A DNA stretch of 64,000 bases. Source: a virus. How positions within the stretch are numbered: position 1 is the first letter of the stretch; every line of letters starts with the position of its first letter. A model generated the notes under the pieces. That model did no database searches. It saw only the letters and a list, made by a program, of their open reading frames with translations, and was not told the origin of the DNA. Shown here piece by piece: positions 9,595-46,787 of the stretch. The position numbers were made by a program, and so were the translations under genes. The stretch is taken from the IMG/VR virus record IMGVR_UViG_3300044653_000098, positions 77,725 through 141,724 of that record. One strand, given 5' to 3'.

Positions 9595-9624
9595 GTTGAC
9601 ACGGGTCTACCTCCCGGCTAGTCT
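9595..9624 (+). promoter_or_regulatory. host sigma70-type promoter with quasi-palindromic operator (copy 1)
   Basis: TTGACA-17bp-TAGTCT; GTTGACACGGGTCTAC; ATG 5 nt after -10. Confidence 0.75.
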
Positions 9625-41593: not shown

Positions 41594-41662
41594 ATGATCT
41601 TACGCAGGGGGAGACCCAGCCCCCGTAGCCCAAAACACCAAGAGGCAGAGGCGCCGCTTTAA
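41594..41662 (+). CDS. putative regulatory mini-ORF (ATG ATC TTA...) overlapping tRNA-Leu(UAA)
   Basis: GAGGAAG SD-like sequence, 22 codons; TTA at codon 3; its TAA stop is the tRNA anticodon. Confidence 0.35.
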   Translation: MILRRGRPSPRSPKHQEAEAPL

Positions 41663-41702
41663 AACCGGTCGAGTGTGGGTTCGAGCCCCACCGGGGGCAC
41701 CA
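41619..41702 (+). tRNA. tRNA-Leu(UAA), bldA-type anticodon, atypical
   Basis: Acceptor GCCCCCG/CGGGGGC, loop TT-TAA-AA, GTGGG-TTCGAGC-CCCAC, encoded CCA; enlarged D-loop and C.C mismatch closing the anticodon stem. Confidence 0.75.
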
Positions 41703-41735
41703 GATGGAAGTTCTGCAAGATGGTCCGGAAAAAGA

Positions 41736-41765
41736 GTTGACACGGGTCTACCGGCATCGTAAGGT
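41736..41765 (+). promoter_or_regulatory. host sigma70-type promoter with operator (copy 2), drives leader and tRNA array
   Basis: TTGACA-17bp-TAAGGT; GTTGACACGGGTCTAC. Confidence 0.75.
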
Positions 41766-41771
41766 GGGTAC

Positions 41772-41870
41772 ATGATGCAACGCAGGTACTCAGAGCAGCG
41801 GAATCAGGATGGGCATTTTGCCATCCCGTGCCCCGCCATGCTGGGGACCAGCGAGGTGGCTTCTGGGTAG
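41772..41870 (+). CDS. putative leader peptide (32 aa) of the tRNA array
   Basis: ATG 6 nt after -10; MMQRRYSEQRNQDGHFAIPCPAMLGTSEVASG*. Confidence 0.5.
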   Translation: MMQRRYSEQRNQDGHFAIPCPAMLGTSEVASG

Positions 41871-41887
41871 AGGAAGATCAAGCTCGG

Positions 41888-41930
41888 AAGCCGCCCGCAG
41901 GGACAGAAGCCCTCGCGGGCGGTTTGCGTT
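41888..41930 (+). terminator. intrinsic terminator/attenuator hairpin
   Basis: AAGCCGCCCGC-AGGG...CCCT-C-GCGGGCGGTTT followed by GCGTT. Confidence 0.65.
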
Positions 41931-41942
41931 ACAGCTGAACAT

Positions 41943-42013
41943 GGGGAGCAGGCGACGGCTGCCGGCGGGATTCCAAACCCCGCGACGAGTGGGTTCGACT
42001 CCTACGCACCCTG
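41943..42013 (+). tRNA. tRNA-Trp(CCA)
   Basis: Loop TTCCAAA; T-arm GGTTCGACTCC. Confidence 0.6.
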
Positions 42014-42172
42014 CGGAGCACCACCCTGAAGGCTGGGGTGAACGTGCCAGCAGATTGATAACTCAACAGCGTGAGCATCGCCCAGGGCGCCATCCCTGGG
42101 CACAAGCTCCCCCGTCCGCGCCTGCGCTCAGGTCTTCCTGGGTCACCATCGGGCACGGCCGGGGGAGATCAT

Positions 42173-42244
42173 GGGGATGAGAAGCTGAGGTAGCGACCGC
42201 GCCCTGCAAGCGTTGGTGACTCGGTTCGATTCCGAGCATCTCCA
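42173..42244 (+). tRNA. tRNA-Ala(UGC), C33
   Basis: G3.U70 acceptor pair; loop CCTGCAA. Confidence 0.65.
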
Positions 42245-42323
42245 CGAGACCGCCGCTTGGGGAACAGCTGGGATGGCCTGGTACCGGGCGTTACCCCCAG
42301 ACCTGAAACGGAGCGGCGGCAGA

Positions 42324-42398
42324 CTGGGTATAGCTCAGGTTGGTCAGAGCGCGCGGTCCGGGGCCGCGAGGCCGCTGGTTCAAATCCAGCTACTCAGA
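42324..42398 (+). tRNA. tRNA-Pro(CGG), C33
   Basis: CGCGG-TCCGGGG-CCGCG. Confidence 0.8.
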
Positions 42399-42400
42399 CC

Positions 42401-42530
42401 GGGGGGAGATGCGGGTTCGAGTCCCGCCCTGTCCGTGAAAACTCTCCGCGGTGGCCGATCTGCAGGCGGCTGGCCGGCCAGGGCCCTGGTCAGGAGAGGG
42501 ACAGGTAGTCCAATTGGCAGGACGCCCCCT
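42401..42530 (+). ncRNA. circularly permuted tRNA-like RNA (YrlA-like)
   Basis: 3' half (GGGGG, T-arm, CCTGTCC) precedes 5' half (GGACAGG, D-arm GTCC/GGAC, CCCCC). Confidence 0.65.
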
Positions 42531-42658
42531 ACATTTTCTGGTGCGGCTTACCACGATCCGGCTGGGGTTCGGGAGAAGAACGTCCGGGAGGTCGAGCGCA
42601 ATACGCGGGCGCAGTTCCGCGCAAACGGCGGCCGGATGCTGTGGGAGCACCAGAACAA

Positions 42659-42733
42659 CGGGATGTCGCGTAAGGGTTAGCGCGCCTGGTTTGGGACCAG
42701 GCAGTCAAGGTTCGAGTCCTTGTATCCCGACCA
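42659..42733 (+). tRNA. tRNA-Pro(UGG)
   Basis: CCTGG-TTTGGGA-CCAGG; CCA. Confidence 0.85.
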
Positions 42734-42800
42734 GCGGCCAGGATGTTCACCGTGTCCTGGTGCAGCGGAGGCTCGTTAGGGAGCACCCAACGGTGACGGC

Positions 42801-42873
42801 GGGTCTGTAGCTCAGACGGGAGAGCGGTCCCCTGAAAAGGGACAGGTGGAGGATTCGATCGCCTCCGGGCCCA
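42801..42873 (+). tRNA. tRNA-Phe(GAA)
   Basis: GTCCC-CTGAAAA-GGGAC. Confidence 0.8.
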
Positions 42874-42891
42874 CGCTGTAGCAGGTAGCCC

Positions 42892-42963
42892 GCCGCACTA
42901 ACACAATGGCTAGTGTGTCTGTCTTCCAAGCAGAGAATGCGAGTTCGATTCTCGCGTGCGGCT
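42892..42963 (+). tRNA. tRNA-Gly(UCC)
   Basis: TCTGT-CTTCCAA-GCAGA. Confidence 0.85.
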
Positions 42964-43068
42964 CGGTGACGAGCAGAGCTGAAACCTCTGTGATCGCGCA
43001 AGTGGCTGGCAGGCCACGGCCGGGCAGGCTCTGGGGGACTGCCATCTCGCAGGGGTGCCCGGTTCTGA

Positions 43069-43141
43069 GTGCCGCTAGCACAACGGTTACTGCACCTGAC
43101 TCTTAATCAGGGGGTTCTCGGTTCGAGTCCGAGGCGGCGCA
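43069..43141 (+). tRNA. tRNA-Lys(CUU)
   Basis: CCTGA-CTCTTAA-TCAGG. Confidence 0.85.
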
Positions 43142-43142
43142 C

Positions 43143-43218
43143 GGGCGAGTACGTCCAACTGGCAGAGCGGCCGGCCTCAAAATCCGCGCGGTTGCGGGTT
43201 CGACTCCCGCCTCGCCTA
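43143..43218 (+). tRNA. tRNA-Leu(CAA)
   Basis: Loop CTCAAAA; short variable arm. Confidence 0.7.
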
Positions 43219-43223
43219 CACGA

Positions 43224-43297
43224 TGGAGCATGGTGGTAATTCGGTATCCCACTGGGCCCTGAACCCAGGGATCCAGGTTCGAGTCCTGGTGCTCCAG
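43224..43297 (+). tRNA. tRNA-Gln(CUG), C33
   Basis: CTGGG-CCCTGAA-CCCAG. Confidence 0.8.
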
Positions 43298-43396
43298 CTA
43301 GTCCTGGCCCGGCTTTCCCTGAATTGACAGGCGACCCCGAAGCGTGACGGCGCATAAGGGGACGGGCACGACGGTGCGGTCCGGCCGGGACTTCAT

Positions 43397-43471
43397 GCCT
43401 CCGTAGCTCAATGGTGGAGCAGTGCCCCCGTAAGGCACAGGCCGCAGGGTCAGTACCTGCCGGAGGCTCCA
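43397..43471 (+). tRNA. tRNA-Thr(CGU), C33
   Basis: GTGCC-CCCGTAA-GGCAC; CCA; variant T-loop. Confidence 0.75.
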
Positions 43472-43472
43472 T

Positions 43473-43561
43473 GCGCTCGTGGCGGAATAGGTATACGCGC
43501 TAGCCCGAGATGCTAGTGCTCCGCGAGGGGCGTGCGGGTTCGACTCCCGCCGAGCGCACCA
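43473..43561 (+). tRNA. tRNA-Leu(GAG), C33
   Basis: CTAGC-CCGAGAT-GCTAG; long variable arm; CCA. Confidence 0.85.
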
Positions 43562-43562
43562 C

Positions 43563-43631
43563 GCCGCCGCGCACGGCTTGCGGCCCGGCTCCTGTAAAGC
43601 TGGAGGTCCGGATCGGCACCGGACGGCGGCT
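43563..43631 (+). tRNA. tRNA-Thr(UGU), C33, degenerate D/T loops
   Basis: CGGCT-CCTGTAA-AGCTG; acceptor GCCGCCG/CGGCGGC. Confidence 0.55.
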
Positions 43632-43635
43632 CTGC

Positions 43636-43709
43636 TCCGGGATCGGGTTGCCGGCATCCCGACGCGGCTTTGGACCGCGGTCACGCTGGTTCGAGTCCAG
43701 CTCCCGGAA
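43636..43709 (+). tRNA. tRNA-Gln(UUG)
   Basis: CGCGG-CTTTGGA-CCGCG. Confidence 0.8.
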
Positions 43710-43713
43710 CGAT

Positions 43714-43785
43714 GCCTGCCTAGTGATAACGGCAGCACGCGTCCTTGGTAAGGACGTAGACGGAGTTCAATTCTCCGGGCAGGCT
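43714..43785 (+). tRNA. tRNA-Thr(GGU)
   Basis: CGTCC-TTGGTAA-GGACG. Confidence 0.85.
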
Positions 43786-43789
43786 CTGT

Positions 43790-43862
43790 GTGGACGTGGC
43801 GAAGCTGGTATCGCATCTGCTTGCCAAGCAGAAGATCGCGGGTTCGATCCCCGTCGTCCACT
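43790..43862 (+). tRNA. tRNA-Gly(GCC)
   Basis: TCTGC-TTGCCAA-GCAGA. Confidence 0.85.
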
Positions 43863-43959
43863 CTCCGGCTGCGGTGTTCACCGTGCCAATGCGAAGGGCC
43901 CGACAGGTTCGGTAACCCGGATGGATAAGTCTGCTAGGCCAGCAGGCAAACGGTTGAAT

Positions 43960-44043
43960 GTCCCGGTGGCGTAATTGGTAGCCGCGCACGGCTCAGACCC
44001 GTGTGCCTTAACGGGCGTGAGGGTTCGACCCCCTCCTGGGACA
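43960..44043 (+). tRNA. tRNA-Leu(CAG)
   Basis: CACGG-CTCAGAC-CCGTG; long variable arm. Confidence 0.85.
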
Positions 44044-44153
44044 CGATCGGAACTCCCTCCCGCCGCGGTTCGCGAACGCGGTGATCAGGAGAGCTAAGGG
44101 TCTGGCCCCGCGCCCGGCCGGAGGAGTTCACAGTCAATGCGCATGGCAAGCGG

Positions 44154-44237
44154 GGCGTGACATGGTCTGCGACCAGCTGGAGGTTGGAGGCGGCCTGCAA
44201 AGCCGTCAGCAGCGGGGTTCGATTCCCCGGCGGGCCT
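44154..44237 (+). tRNA. tRNA-Cys(GCA), 5' half irregular
   Basis: GCGGC-CTGCAAA-GCCGT and a clear T-arm; acceptor and D-arm hard to resolve. Confidence 0.45.
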
Positions 44238-44440
44238 CTAACAGGCTCCGTCTGCGTGGATTTCGCAGTTCGGGCCGTTCCCCGGCGGGATGGCATTGGC
44301 GGAGGCTGCGGCCGCGCTCAGGAGGGTGCCGAGTGCAATACCCGCGGCGAGAAGGGCTGCTAGAAGTCGGTAGCGCATGGTCTTCACCTTTCTGCTGGTA
44401 GCTGTCACGGTACGCCTAAGTGATTGTTCTGCACAGGCAT

Positions 44441-44525
44441 GGAGCGGTGGCCGAGCGGCCTATGGCGGTGTCCTGCTAAGGCACTCACCGGAAACGGTGC
44501 GCGGGTTCAAATCCCGCTCGCTCCT
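44441..44525 (+). tRNA. tRNA-Ser(GCU)
   Basis: GTGTC-CTGCTAA-GGCAC; long variable arm. Confidence 0.85.
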
Positions 44526-44528
44526 CTT

Positions 44529-44613
44529 GGAAGGTAGCGCCGAGGATGGCGAACTGGTCCCGAAAACCAGGCCGGGGTGAGTAGCCCCGAGGGTTCGATT
44601 CCTTTACCTTCCT
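44529..44613 (+). tRNA. tRNA-Ser(CGA), C33
   Basis: CTGGT-CCCGAAA-ACCAG. Confidence 0.8.
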
Positions 44614-44617
44614 CTGA

Positions 44618-44691
44618 CCGCCCCGGCTCAGCCGGTGAAGAGGCCCGTCTGATAAGCGGGTAGTCGCATGGTTCAACTCCATGGGGGCGGA
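44618..44691 (+). tRNA. tRNA-Ile(GAU)
   Basis: CCCGT-CTGATAA-GCGGG. Confidence 0.75.
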
Positions 44692-44692
44692 C

Positions 44693-44767
44693 TGGCCAGT
44701 AGCACAAAGGTAAGTGCACCCGTCTTATAAGCGGGCGATACGGAGTCAAGACCCGGCTGGCCTACCA
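44693..44767 (+). tRNA. tRNA-Ile(UAU)
   Basis: CCCGT-CTTATAA-GCGGG; CCA; variant T-loop. Confidence 0.65.
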
Positions 44768-44840
44768 GCTCCCCGCGCCCGACTGGACGGGCACCGGACT
44801 TTTAATCCGGACTGACTGGGTTCGATTCCTTGGGGGAGCA
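44768..44840 (+). tRNA. tRNA-Lys(UUU)
   Basis: CCGGA-CTTTTAA-TCCGG. Confidence 0.75.
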
Positions 44841-44845
44841 CGCAA

Positions 44846-44917
44846 GCGTCGCTGGTGTAAAGGAAGCGCGCTCGCCTTCTAAGCGAGATGGTCTCAGTTC
44901 GATTCTGGGGCGACGCA
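44846..44917 (+). tRNA. tRNA-Arg(UCU)
   Basis: CTCGC-CTTCTAA-GCGAG. Confidence 0.8.
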
Positions 44918-44918
44918 C

Positions 44919-44989
44919 GGCTCGTTAGGTTAACGGCAGACCGCCTGGTTCTCAGCCAGGGAGCAGGGGTTCAATTCCCCTACGAGCTA
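44919..44989 (+). tRNA. tRNA-Glu(CUC)
   Basis: CCTGG-TTCTCAG-CCAGG. Confidence 0.85.
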
Positions 44990-44993
44990 CTTT

Positions 44994-45071
44994 GCCGCTG
45001 TTACTCTGATGGTAAGGGGTAGCCGGGTTTTCACCCCGGACACGACGCGGGTTCGAGTCCCGTCAGCGGCT
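44994..45071 (+). tRNA. tRNA-Glu(UUC)
   Basis: CCGGG-TTTTCAC-CCCGG. Confidence 0.8.
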
Positions 45072-45072
45072 C

Positions 45073-45146
45073 TGCGGACAGCAGCACCGGTCGTGCTGAA
45101 CGGTCTCATAAGCCGAGATAGCTGGGTTCGACTCCCAGGTCCGCAA
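45073..45146 (+). tRNA. tRNA-Met(CAU)
   Basis: CGGT-CTCATAA-GCCG. Confidence 0.7.
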
Positions 45147-45159
45147 CTGTTCAATCTGA

Positions 45160-45233
45160 TCCGGCGTAGCTCAGTCTGGTAGAGCAGCCGCCCGTTAAGC
45201 GGAAGCGCGCAGGTTCGAGCCCTGCCGCCGGAG
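45160..45233 (+). tRNA. tRNA-Asn(GUU), C33
   Basis: CCGC-CCGTTAA-GCGG. Confidence 0.85.
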
Positions 45234-45245
45234 CGCAGTAATCAT

Positions 45246-45318
45246 GGTTCTGTAGCTCAGTGGTCAGAGCGTCCGCCTGTCGAGCGGAGGGCCGCGGGTT
45301 CGACTCCCGTCAGGACCG
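45246..45318 (+). tRNA. tRNA-Asp(GUC)
   Basis: TCCGC-CTGTCGA-GCGGA. Confidence 0.85.
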
Positions 45319-45329
45319 CGCATGATAAA

Positions 45330-45404
45330 GGGTGCTTAGCTCAGCGGAAGAGCAGCAGCACGACACGCTGAAGGCCGCAGGTTCGATCCCTGCAGCGCCC
45401 ACCA
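45330..45404 (+). tRNA. tRNA-Val(GAC), C33
   Basis: CAGC-ACGACAC-GCTG; CCA. Confidence 0.8.
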
Positions 45405-45492
45405 TGCGCGTTACGCCGGAGAACGGCCGCCCAATACGCGCAGCAGGGGACTGTCGTACAGGCGGAGGAAGTCGGCTTGGCGGTCCCAACTA

Positions 45493-45564
45493 GCGTCCAT
45501 CGTTCAACGGATAGGACGGCAGGCTACGGACCTGCTGATGGGAGTTCGAGTCTTCCTGGACGCA
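45493..45564 (+). tRNA. tRNA-Arg(ACG)
   Basis: GCAGG-CTACGGA-CCTGC. Confidence 0.85.
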
Positions 45565-45565
45565 C

Positions 45566-45637
45566 GGGCCGTTAGCTCAGCGGCAGAGCGGCGCCCCCAC
45601 ACGGCGCGCAGCGGAGGTTCGAGTCCTCCATGGCCCA
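45566..45637 (+). tRNA. tRNA-Val(CAC), C33
   Basis: GCGCC-CCCACAC-GGCGC. Confidence 0.8.
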
Positions 45638-45639
45638 CT

Positions 45640-45710
45640 GAGGGCGAACCGCATGGCGCGGAGGCTGGTTGTGAGCCAGTCAGCAGCGGGTTCGAATCCC
45701 GTCGTCCTCC
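45640..45710 (+). tRNA. tRNA-His(GUG)
   Basis: GCTGG-TTGTGAG-CCAGT. Confidence 0.75.
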
Positions 45711-45796
45711 CTTTCCCCCGGTCGTAGGGCCGCACCCGGCAGGGTGATCCGGAGAGCCTGTGTCCATCAGGGCGGGGATCAAAAACTCCGGGCTAT

Positions 45797-45877
45797 GGCG
45801 GAGTGACCCGAGATGGCATGGGAGCGGTCTGTAAAACCGTCGCTTCGGCACGGCTGGTTCGATTCCAGCGTCCGCCA
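45797..45877 (+). tRNA. tRNA-Tyr(GUA)
   Basis: GCGGT-CTGTAAA-ACCGT; long variable arm. Confidence 0.8.
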
Positions 45878-45932
45878 CTCTCCGGGTGCAGGAGCCACAC
45901 GGCTTGGCCGCCGTGCCTGCCCCGGAGCGTAA

Positions 45933-46004
45933 GCGCCTATCGTTCAGTGGATAGGATCGCGGCCCCCGAAGCCGCAGACGCTGGTTCGAGTCCAGCTGGG
46001 CGCA
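45933..46004 (+). tRNA. tRNA-Arg(CCG), C33
   Basis: GCGGC-CCCCGAA-GCCGC. Confidence 0.85.
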
Positions 46005-46005
46005 C

Positions 46006-46077
46006 TGGCCTGAAGCTCAATGGACGAGCGGTCGCCCCCTAAGCGAACGGCTGCGGGTTCGAGTCCCGTCAGGCCGG
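46006..46077 (+). tRNA. tRNA-Arg(CCU), C33
   Basis: TCGC-CCCCTAA-GCGA. Confidence 0.75.
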
Positions 46078-46292
46078 CCACATCGATGCTCACGCTGCGA
46101 GTTGTCCTGGTATCCGGTTCGGCGTTTCTTGCCCGTCGTCCTATCCGGCCCGGCCCCGTCCAAGCGCTCCCGCGGAGATAGCTGTTGTGGCGGGGCCCGG
46201 TCGTATGATAGAGTTGCTTTCGTAACCGCCCGGACCTGCCTATCAGTGCGACGCAGCCGGGCGGACCGCTTTTCCGGGCCGATGAGCCGGCC

Positions 46293-46787
46293 ATGGACCT
46301 GTCCGGCGCCACCCTGGCTGAGCTGAACGCCGAGCTGATCACGCGCACCGCCCCGGTCGAGTCGCTCGACCGGCTGTTTGCGTTGCCTGATTGGGTGACC
46401 GACCCGGATCTGTGCAACTCCTACGAGGTGCTGGTCGCCCGGCTCCGGAGAGAGACCGACCACCTGCCCCTGAACACGCTCCAGCAGATGAGGATCGAGC
46501 GGATCGTCTTCAACTACATCGTGCTGAAGTTCAGGGAGTCTCACGCGGGCAGCGACCACCAGTTCACGGACCACCTCAAGGACTGGAACACCTACTGGGC
46601 CTCGATCACCCGGGAGTTCGACGCGGTGCTGCGCGCCTGGCAGCCCAAAGAGCAGGACGCGATCATGCACATGGTGAAGCTGGCCGTCGAAGAGGTGATC
46701 GCGACGATCGAGGACACCGGGGTGCGCAATGACCTCGTGCGGAGGTTCCCCGACACCTTCAAGCGCATGGGCCTGATCAGCGCCTGA
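46293..46787 (+). CDS. hypothetical protein, candidate terminase small subunit
   Basis: First gene of the late block (CCGAT-N9-ATG); helical; function inferred from position. Confidence 0.5.
   Translation: MDLSGATLAELNAELITRTAPVESLDRLFALPDWVTDPDLCNSYEVLVARLRRETDHLPLNTLQQMRIERIVFNYIVLKFRESHAGSDHQFTDHLKDWNTYWASITREFDAVLRAWQPKEQDAIMHMVKLAVEEVIATIEDTGVRNDLVRRFPDTFKRMGLISA

Follow-up and report, generated by a model that had tools for sequence, protein, structure and literature searches.

The locus described here raises the question of how transcription of a phage tRNA array might be controlled, and specifically what is done by the short leader that separates its promoter from the first tRNA gene behind it. 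Why phages carry tRNA genes, and how these genes are controlled, has been debated for decades. The stretch of DNA analysed, which we refer to as the window, covers the final 64 kb of an IMG/VR virus record of 141.7 kb (67% G+C), and the genes carried include those for DNA polymerase, helicase, terminase and portal. The sequencing runs containing most of the stretch are soil metagenomes, and a search of a cultured phage collection returned tRNA-level matches only and no cultured relative. An earlier note on this DNA had described a promoter, a leaderless 32-aa ORF using 18 of the 20 amino acids (no K or W) and a GC-rich hairpin with a U-rich tail before the first tRNA, and had read them as an attenuator in front of a 35-tRNA array. 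All three elements lie where that note placed them, and the predicted terminator is kept in all homologues; the array behind the leader is one element smaller than the note had it. In our judgement there is an even chance that the leader is a ribosome-mediated transcription attenuator of the tRNA array, one that works without regulatory codon runs.

To reach the total of 35, one has to add 2 Rfam-only calls and 3 tRNA-like elements to 30 ARAGORN calls; all lie, like the other features discussed, on the + strand. The tRNA genes downstream of the leader promoter number 34. The remaining one, a tRNA-Leu(UAA)-like element with encoded CCA (41621-41703), stands upstream of the promoter and would be outside any leader control; ARAGORN did not call it in the window, and its homologue is a tRNA-Leu(taa) in the related phage L066 and an odd 93-nt tRNA in relatives L002 and L004. 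The first gene behind the leader is tRNA-Trp(CCA)-like (41944-42011), degenerate here with a weak Rfam match, and a proper tRNA-Trp(cca) occupies the equivalent place in L002, L004, L006 and L066. The rest of the array, about 33 genes found with ARAGORN and Rfam, follows at 42172-46080 behind the same promoter. The conserved block 41944-42250 was also considered as a tmRNA or permuted tmRNA and rejected, having no ARAGORN or Rfam support beyond a 23-bit sub-threshold match.

The leader promoter (41737-41765) consists of a -35 element TTGACA (41737-42) and a -10 element TAAGGT (41760-65) across a 17-nt spacer, and from these positions the expected +1 is A41772, the A of the leader ORF ATG. Its extended -35 motif, TTGACACGGGTCTACC (41737-52), is a copy of a 16-nt phage motif, TTGACACG(T/G)GTCTACC, that the genome contains at about 20 sites, nearly always with a TANNNT hexamer at the right distance; to judge by its sequence, the leader promoter is genuine in kind. 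Downstream of many copies lies a common 5′ UTR that includes the ribosome-binding site GGAGG. In two further cases the predicted +1 coincides with the ATG of a long ORF (381 and 365 aa; window 9630 and 57307), and because of these, leaderless genes seem normal for this phage. The motif promoter is kept in all homologues. A motif scan between window positions 9596 and 57271 found no copy besides the one at 41737; as this is the sole copy near the array, the 34 tRNAs would be transcribed only through the hairpin, barring unseen promoters. A consensus scan tool flagged neither the leader promoter nor the hairpin, because the -10 element matches at only 3/6 positions and the stem is bulged.

The intrinsic terminator predicted from folding and alignment (41891-41930, segments 3:4) comprises a 13-bp hairpin at 41891-41922 and the tail TTTGCGTT at 41923-30. 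The energy of the hairpin is -24.2 kcal/mol in the window and -21 to -24 kcal/mol across the homologues, with tails in relatives that read TTTGTTTTT, TTTGCTTTT and TTTTTCAAC, and on the alignment 97% of cells are paired. On this modelling the hairpin (41891-41922) probably ends transcription before tRNA-Trp. GC-rich hairpins with TTTG after the stem, the format of the leader terminator, recur in the genome: some are found at unit boundaries next to promoter motifs, one of them immediately ahead of the promoter at genome position 53880, and others fall within ORFs. In the leader the order is the opposite of that at the unit boundaries, since the terminator follows the promoter by about 155 nt, a predicted layout shared by attenuators and small RNA genes.

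Two alternatives to the attenuator meet the evidence at this point. The first is a constitutive leaky terminator without regulation, whose hairpin damps or shapes transcription or stabilizes or processes the 5′ leader, with the ORF and the alternative helix described below as by-products of a GC-rich, structured leader. Its U-tract is short, and termination may therefore simply be weak and constitutive; overall we find this reading rather unlikely, for reasons that emerge from the conservation of the ORF and of the alternative helix. The second is an untranslated RNA with an incidental ORF. It would be either a small RNA gene of about 155 nt, with a promoter and terminator of its own, or a switch that responds not to the ribosome but to another factor such as a protein, a tRNA or a metabolite. 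Such an RNA would be in keeping with the strong structure of the leader, which as a whole folds better than 200/200 shuffles (z = -3.6), but no Rfam family matches 41772-41931 at E<=1 with permissive filters, a result that includes the T-box and led us to reject T-box identity.

A comparison was possible across nine distinct leaders (the window, L070, L002, L087, L004, L085, L090, L066 and L006), gathered through searches with neighbouring proteins and all from soil-metagenome phages. The order of elements is the same in all nine: motif promoter, 32-codon ORF, spacer, hairpin with T-rich tail, short conserved linker and tRNA-Trp. Eight of the leaders are fairly close to each other and L006 is much more diverged (its neighbouring protein is 52% identical, and its ORF aligns with the others only with gaps and few invariant columns), so the nine amount to two to three effective independent comparisons. 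In one further relative, L068, the tRNA array is absent and so is the leader, and L072 shows no leader because it begins inside the array. Among the distant relatives of the 164-aa neighbour (L073-L084) there is no tRNA array at this place, except for one lone tRNA in L080, downstream of the match. Only one relative emerged from IMG/VR when it was scanned with two DNA patterns and two protein queries, a metagenome pattern scan gave 57 chance matches and none that was related, and exact look-up of eight leader peptides gave no additional variants.

The ORF (41772-41870) is kept in ways that speak against its being incidental. It has 32 codons in 9/9 distinct homologues and ends in TAG (41868-70) in the window and in TAG or TAA only across the set. 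The ATG lies exactly at the predicted +1 in eight homologues, as it does in the two long ORFs behind the same type of promoter; in L006, a -10-like TAAAGT is retained seven bases before the ATG, but initiation signals there are weak, which counts against translation: measured from the motif promoter, the 5′ UTR would be 53 nt long and lack a good Shine-Dalgarno sequence. Indels among the close relatives fall in the spacer and never within the ORF. The window peptide contains 18 different amino acids, with K and W absent, and this breadth is specific to the frame: 17-19 different amino acids in frame 0 in every lineage, compared with 11-15 in the other two frames. By comparison, 32-residue windows of the phage proteome contain 13.7 +/- 2.1 different amino acids, with a probability of 0.017 for at least 18 and of 0.003 for at least 19, and against nucleotide shuffles that stay open the breadth has p = 0.013 in the window, 0.015 in L066 and 0.0002 in L006. 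The L006 value thus replicates the window's amino-acid breadth in a diverged sequence. No codon run or amino-acid run was found in the 32-codon leaders.

With its length, start, stop position and frame-specific breadth kept, the leader ORF is probably translated. These same features weigh against an untranslated RNA, which we consider unlikely although several observations fit it: the 3′ half of the leader is invariant at the nucleotide level with variation placed in loops and spacers, third-position changes are not in excess, and the similarity between the window and L006 lacks frame specificity. The leaky terminator, for its part, can draw on the calculation from composition that an open 32-codon frame is about 50% likely at this GC content; it does not account for the retention of ORF length, start and stop position in L006, or for a breadth confined to frame 0.

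Whatever the ORF does, it does not appear to act through the sequence of its peptide. Variable ORF sites are distributed 11:9:11 by codon position, without a third-position excess, and each pair of homologues shows more non-synonymous than synonymous codon changes; the peptide sequence is under no purifying selection. Across seven homologues, no codon position varies at ORF sites 51-90, whereas 19 of the first 50 sites vary, and because this invariance extends to synonymous positions it points to a constraint at the RNA level, located exactly at segments 1 and 2 of the structures considered below. Homology between the window and L006 peptides was tried as evidence for coding and set aside, because the frame 0 score is no better than that of other frames; the two peptides share few residues. 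Peptides not conserved as proteins argue against a functional micro-protein and fit either a leader peptide, for which the act of translation counts and the product does not, or a non-coding RNA. We therefore regard as very improbable a stand-alone micro-protein gene with an ordinary terminator, the tRNAs being transcribed by read-through or from unseen promoters, even though JGI gene callers predict the 32-aa ORF in L070, L087 and L088 and the C-terminal half of the peptide is identical in seven homologues. Furthermore, no second promoter motif serves the array, which also counts against that arrangement.

If the leader is an attenuator, the constrained region should contain a structure that competes with the terminator. 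The earlier note had proposed a mutually exclusive antiterminator made by pairing the last leader codons with two downstream complements. The first pairing, GGCTTCTGGG (41858-67) with CTCGGAAGCC (41883-92), forms 10 bp including two G.U pairs; in the second, GGCTTCTG is perfectly complementary to CAGAAGCC (41904-11) in the top of the hairpin. These pairings do not suffice by themselves. Only 2 nt of the terminator arm are taken by the 10-bp helix, which in the MFE stands next to the terminator; competition comes solely from its 8-bp extension. The second pairing (41858-65 with 41904-11), which does exist in the window, is not conserved: it is disrupted in L004 and in L066, and L006 lacks it. 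What stands of the proposal is a longer predicted helix, supported by folding and covariation: the antiterminator (41851-41898, segments 2:3) pairs 41851-41868 with 41882-41898 in 17 bp with A41854 bulged. It takes the first 8 nt of the terminator 5′ arm, the final six codons of the leader ORF supply its 5′ strand, and the stop codon lies at its loop.

Thermodynamic folding of nascent transcripts gives an order of events with the antiterminator first and the terminator later. Specifically, the antiterminator is present in the MFE of the nascent RNA truncated before the 3′ arm in 6/6 folded homologues, and in stepwise folding it holds the arm until the 3′ arm is complete. From then on the MFE passes to the terminator in the window, L066 and L006, while in L070 there is little between the two states. 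Read-through, if it occurs, would therefore be a matter of kinetics, as it is in known attenuators. Strand displacement could nucleate from the top 5 bp of the terminator, which the antiterminator does not cover. That the complete terminator is thermodynamically favoured in the window, L066 and L006 is also what a leaky terminator without regulation would give.

Covariation in related phages, a check that the note had named, yielded five compensatory pairs for the antiterminator and two for the terminator; all come from L006, so that they constitute essentially one deep comparison. For the antiterminator, 90% of alignment cells are paired compared with 35-49% in slid controls, and 0/500 shuffles score as high, which argues against the helix being a by-product of a GC-rich leader. 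Likewise, where L070, L002 and L087 have U in place of C in the arm, a G.U pair is retained in the terminator, a further point against the leaky terminator; by our reading of the modelled L070 antiterminator fold, the changed base pairs with the otherwise bulged A.

Two further hairpins complete the set of alternative structures. A long hairpin, P1 (41785-41849), with H2 (41807-41826) at its tip, is found in the MFE of truncated transcripts of the window, L070, L002, L004 and L066, and two L066 changes in its 5′ strand preserve pairing. The hairpin H3 (41833-41859, segments 1:2), seen in the full-leader MFE, is a candidate anti-antiterminator that sequesters the 5′ strand needed for the outer antiterminator helix. 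P1 and H3 compete because both use 41841-49, whereas P1 and the antiterminator can form together. H3 is invariant in the seven close homologues; 3/11 of its pairs are broken in L066, which has a shifted helix instead, and it is not clearly homologous in L006. In nascent-RNA folds, P1 beats H3.

It is informative to examine these structures with a ribosome placed on the ORF. We masked a 28-nt footprint at each codon and calculated how much energy the terminator arm gains by pairing upstream. Counting paired arm bases in the nascent MFE had been tried as a measure and was replaced by energy differences and shuffles as too unspecific, 5-7/8 bases still pairing with the ribosome at the stop; GC-rich arms find pairing partners easily. 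For naked RNA the arm-pairing energy is -9 to -14 kcal/mol in six homologues. With the A site at codon 20 it rises in strength to -15 to -20 kcal/mol because the competing H3 is then blocked, and with the ribosome at codons 26-33 it falls to -3 to -8 kcal/mol. The antiterminator is thus strongest with the modelled ribosome at codons 20-22 and collapses at codons 26-33; in four homologues, a stall at codons 20-22 flips the full-length MFE to the antiterminator. Shuffled leaders give -7 to -8 +/- 2.5 kcal/mol, a value that the leaky terminator can claim in its favour, and the corresponding p for naked RNA is 0.015-0.055 in 5/6 homologues and 0.185 in L002; the comparison with shuffles is suggestive, and modest rather than strong. 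The core architecture is supported by folding and by the relatives, and in outline the logic predicted from it agrees with that of the earlier note, with details corrected as described: a ribosome at the stop codon would free the terminator, and an earlier stall or the absence of a ribosome would favour read-through.

An attenuator of this kind would operate as follows. Host RNA polymerase would start at A41772, and the transcript would open with the AUG of the 32-codon ORF as a leaderless mRNA. The read-through fold would combine P1 with the 17-bp antiterminator holding the first 8 nt of the terminator 5′ arm, and the termination fold would combine H3 with the terminator at 41891-41922 and its U-rich tail. 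A ribosome at codon 26 or further, or at the stop, would cover the antiterminator strand, permitting the terminator to form and transcription to stop before tRNA-Trp. If the ribosome were absent or delayed, the antiterminator would form first and the polymerase would enter the 34 tRNA genes, an effect that should be greatest with the ribosome on segment 1 (codons 18-24). Because the ORF contains no single-codon run and uses 17-19 amino acids, the switch would report general decoding speed, and the result would be a feedback in which poor decoding leads to more phage tRNA synthesis. That the position of the ribosome would decide the fold of the leader is our inference, and so is the physiological trigger of the switch.

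It is also worth considering how such a leader would relate to known regulators. The classical leader-peptide attenuators of amino-acid operons are typified by trpL, hisL, leuL, thrL, pheL and ilvL of E. coli and Salmonella. Like the trpL/hisL type, the phage leader has a promoter-proximal mini-ORF, a predicted intrinsic terminator before the genes that would be regulated, a candidate for the competing third hairpin (1:2) and an overlapping predicted antiterminator whose 5′ strand would be under the ribosome at the stop codon. Unlike that type, it has no regulatory codon run but 17-19 different amino acids, its targets would be tRNAs and not biosynthetic enzymes, and its predicted mRNA is leaderless and phage-borne. 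In addition, the trp leader terminates when untranslated, whereas the naked phage RNA forms the antiterminator first in our models, so that the default may be read-through.

Drug-responsive attenuators of resistance genes (erm, vmlR and msrD type), which pair a uORF with a terminator and antiterminator, report general ribosome slowing; they need particular stalling peptides and drugs to work, and the genes under their control encode proteins. The phage leader would similarly report general slowing and not the supply of one amino acid, but no stalling motif was identified in it. Like the T-box riboswitch (RF00230), it would couple the state of tRNA to a choice between terminator and antiterminator; it differs in having no Stem I, specifier or 7-nt T-box bulge, and the sensing would take place via the ribosome. 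Leaderless short ORFs with polycysteine serve as attenuators in mycobacteria (Canestrari et al., bioRxiv 10.1101/834739). The phage leader resembles them in being an actinobacterial-style leaderless short ORF heading an operon, in which ribosome pausing would alter the downstream RNA structure, and differs in having one Cys codon, untranslated downstream tRNA genes and a terminator structure; the Cys-responsive mycobacterial ORFs act on translation through masking of the ribosome-binding site and not on termination.

A bolder version of the attenuator takes the leader to be a universal decoding-speed sensor, with a 32-codon test message selected to contain nearly every amino acid. We advance this tentatively, as something possible rather than probable. 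Almost any tRNA shortage or cleavage, or a block of translation, would delay the ribosome and switch on a near-complete set of phage tRNAs, and once decoding was restored the set would be switched off again. Phage tRNAs have been linked to escape from tRNA-cleaving defences (eLife 2023 PMC10264068; Nature 2024 PMC11464382; Nat Commun 2024 PMC11555353), and we hypothesize that the leader is connected with anticodon-nuclease defence; if the sensor exists, it would represent a built-in answer of the phage to tRNA-targeting defences. In the literature we found no description of a phage tRNA array whose expression is regulated, nor of leader-peptide attenuation of any tRNA operon.

Should the switch work as modelled, it would constitute a compact feedback tying decoding speed to tRNA supply, would extend attenuation from one amino acid to all, and would show that leaderless attenuators occur in phages; at about 190 bp, the leader is moreover a small, portable part. 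With regard to expression of the locus, one soil RNA run (X16) yielded contigs, which cannot show transcript ends, on 42373-42643 and 42979-43159 of the array and none on the leader. Matching of leader codons to the anticodons of the array proved uninformative because the array is nearly complete. The codon adaptation of the leader is low yet unremarkable, lying between the 11th and the 31st percentile.

The tRNA-like genes on either side of the leader (the promoter, 32-codon ORF and terminator hairpin that head the tRNA array) depart from canonical form, and the departures are only partly shared with related soil-metagenome phages. The first tRNA behind the leader, tRNA-Trp(CCA) (41944–42011), is degenerate in the window, where ARAGORN does not call it, and in the relative L070, but is canonical in L002, L004, L006 and L066. 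A tRNA-Ala(UGC)-like gene (42172–42246) has a G3:U70 pair, although its D and anticodon stems are weak and it is not called by ARAGORN; the only Rfam match nearby is a 23-bit permuted-tmRNA match adjoining the gene. This element is 100% conserved in L002, and at its position L006 and L066 carry a normal tRNA-Ala(tgc). Between these two genes, directly 3′ of tRNA-Trp, lies a conserved stretch of about 95 nucleotides (42012–42106), identical in L002 and near-identical in L004, L085 and L090, that includes TGATAA and a GC hairpin (GCCCAGGGCGCCATCCCTGGGC) lacking a T-tail and matches no Rfam family.

Upstream of the leader promoter, a tRNA-Leu(UAA)-like gene that encodes its own CCA (41621–41703) has an oversized anticodon loop in both the window and L070, and again ARAGORN makes no call in the window. 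The L002 and L004 versions are 93 nucleotides long and are assigned a 4-base anticodon by that program, and L066 has a normal tRNA-Leu(taa) at this position. Because the gene represents a phage-borne tRNA for the rare codon TTA, it hints at an actinomycete host.

The sequence at the start of the leader promoter belongs to a family of sites. Across the whole 141.7-kb phage genome there are about 20 sites with the 16-nucleotide near-palindrome TTGACACG(T/G)GTCTACC, concentrated at genome 46–65 kb, with copies in the window at 9596, 41737 and 57271. Both orientations are often present at a site, and downstream there is usually TANNNT followed by a common 5′ UTR (AGCCCA..AAACGGAGGC). The motif probably defines the promoter class of this phage, and it is perhaps a regulator binding site as well.

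At the other end of the array, the region 3′ of the last tRNA (46226–46275) contains CCGCCCGG/CCGGGCGG as the arms of an 8-bp GC stem closing a long loop, then ACCGCTTTTCC; this stem-loop may end the array transcript ahead of the next gene at 46293. In a soil metatranscriptome run, short contigs match the array at 42373–42643 and 42979–43159 with 0–3 differences, covering spacer and parts of tRNAs, with none over the leader; these matches suggest that some part of the array may exist as RNA in nature.

The relatives also differ in gene content. Directly 3′ of the tRNA array, L066 (7693–10034) and, in the same layout, L072 encode a flavohaemoglobin-like protein with globin, FAD and NAD domains as well as a nitric-oxide synthase; neither gene is present in the phage of the window. 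Inteins (Pfam Intein_splicing, HNH and LAGLIDADG) are found in terminase-like, portal and large B12-type radical SAM genes of the relatives, in L066 (15675–18674), L070 (14359–20495) and L068 (1–563), the last a relative without the tRNA array.
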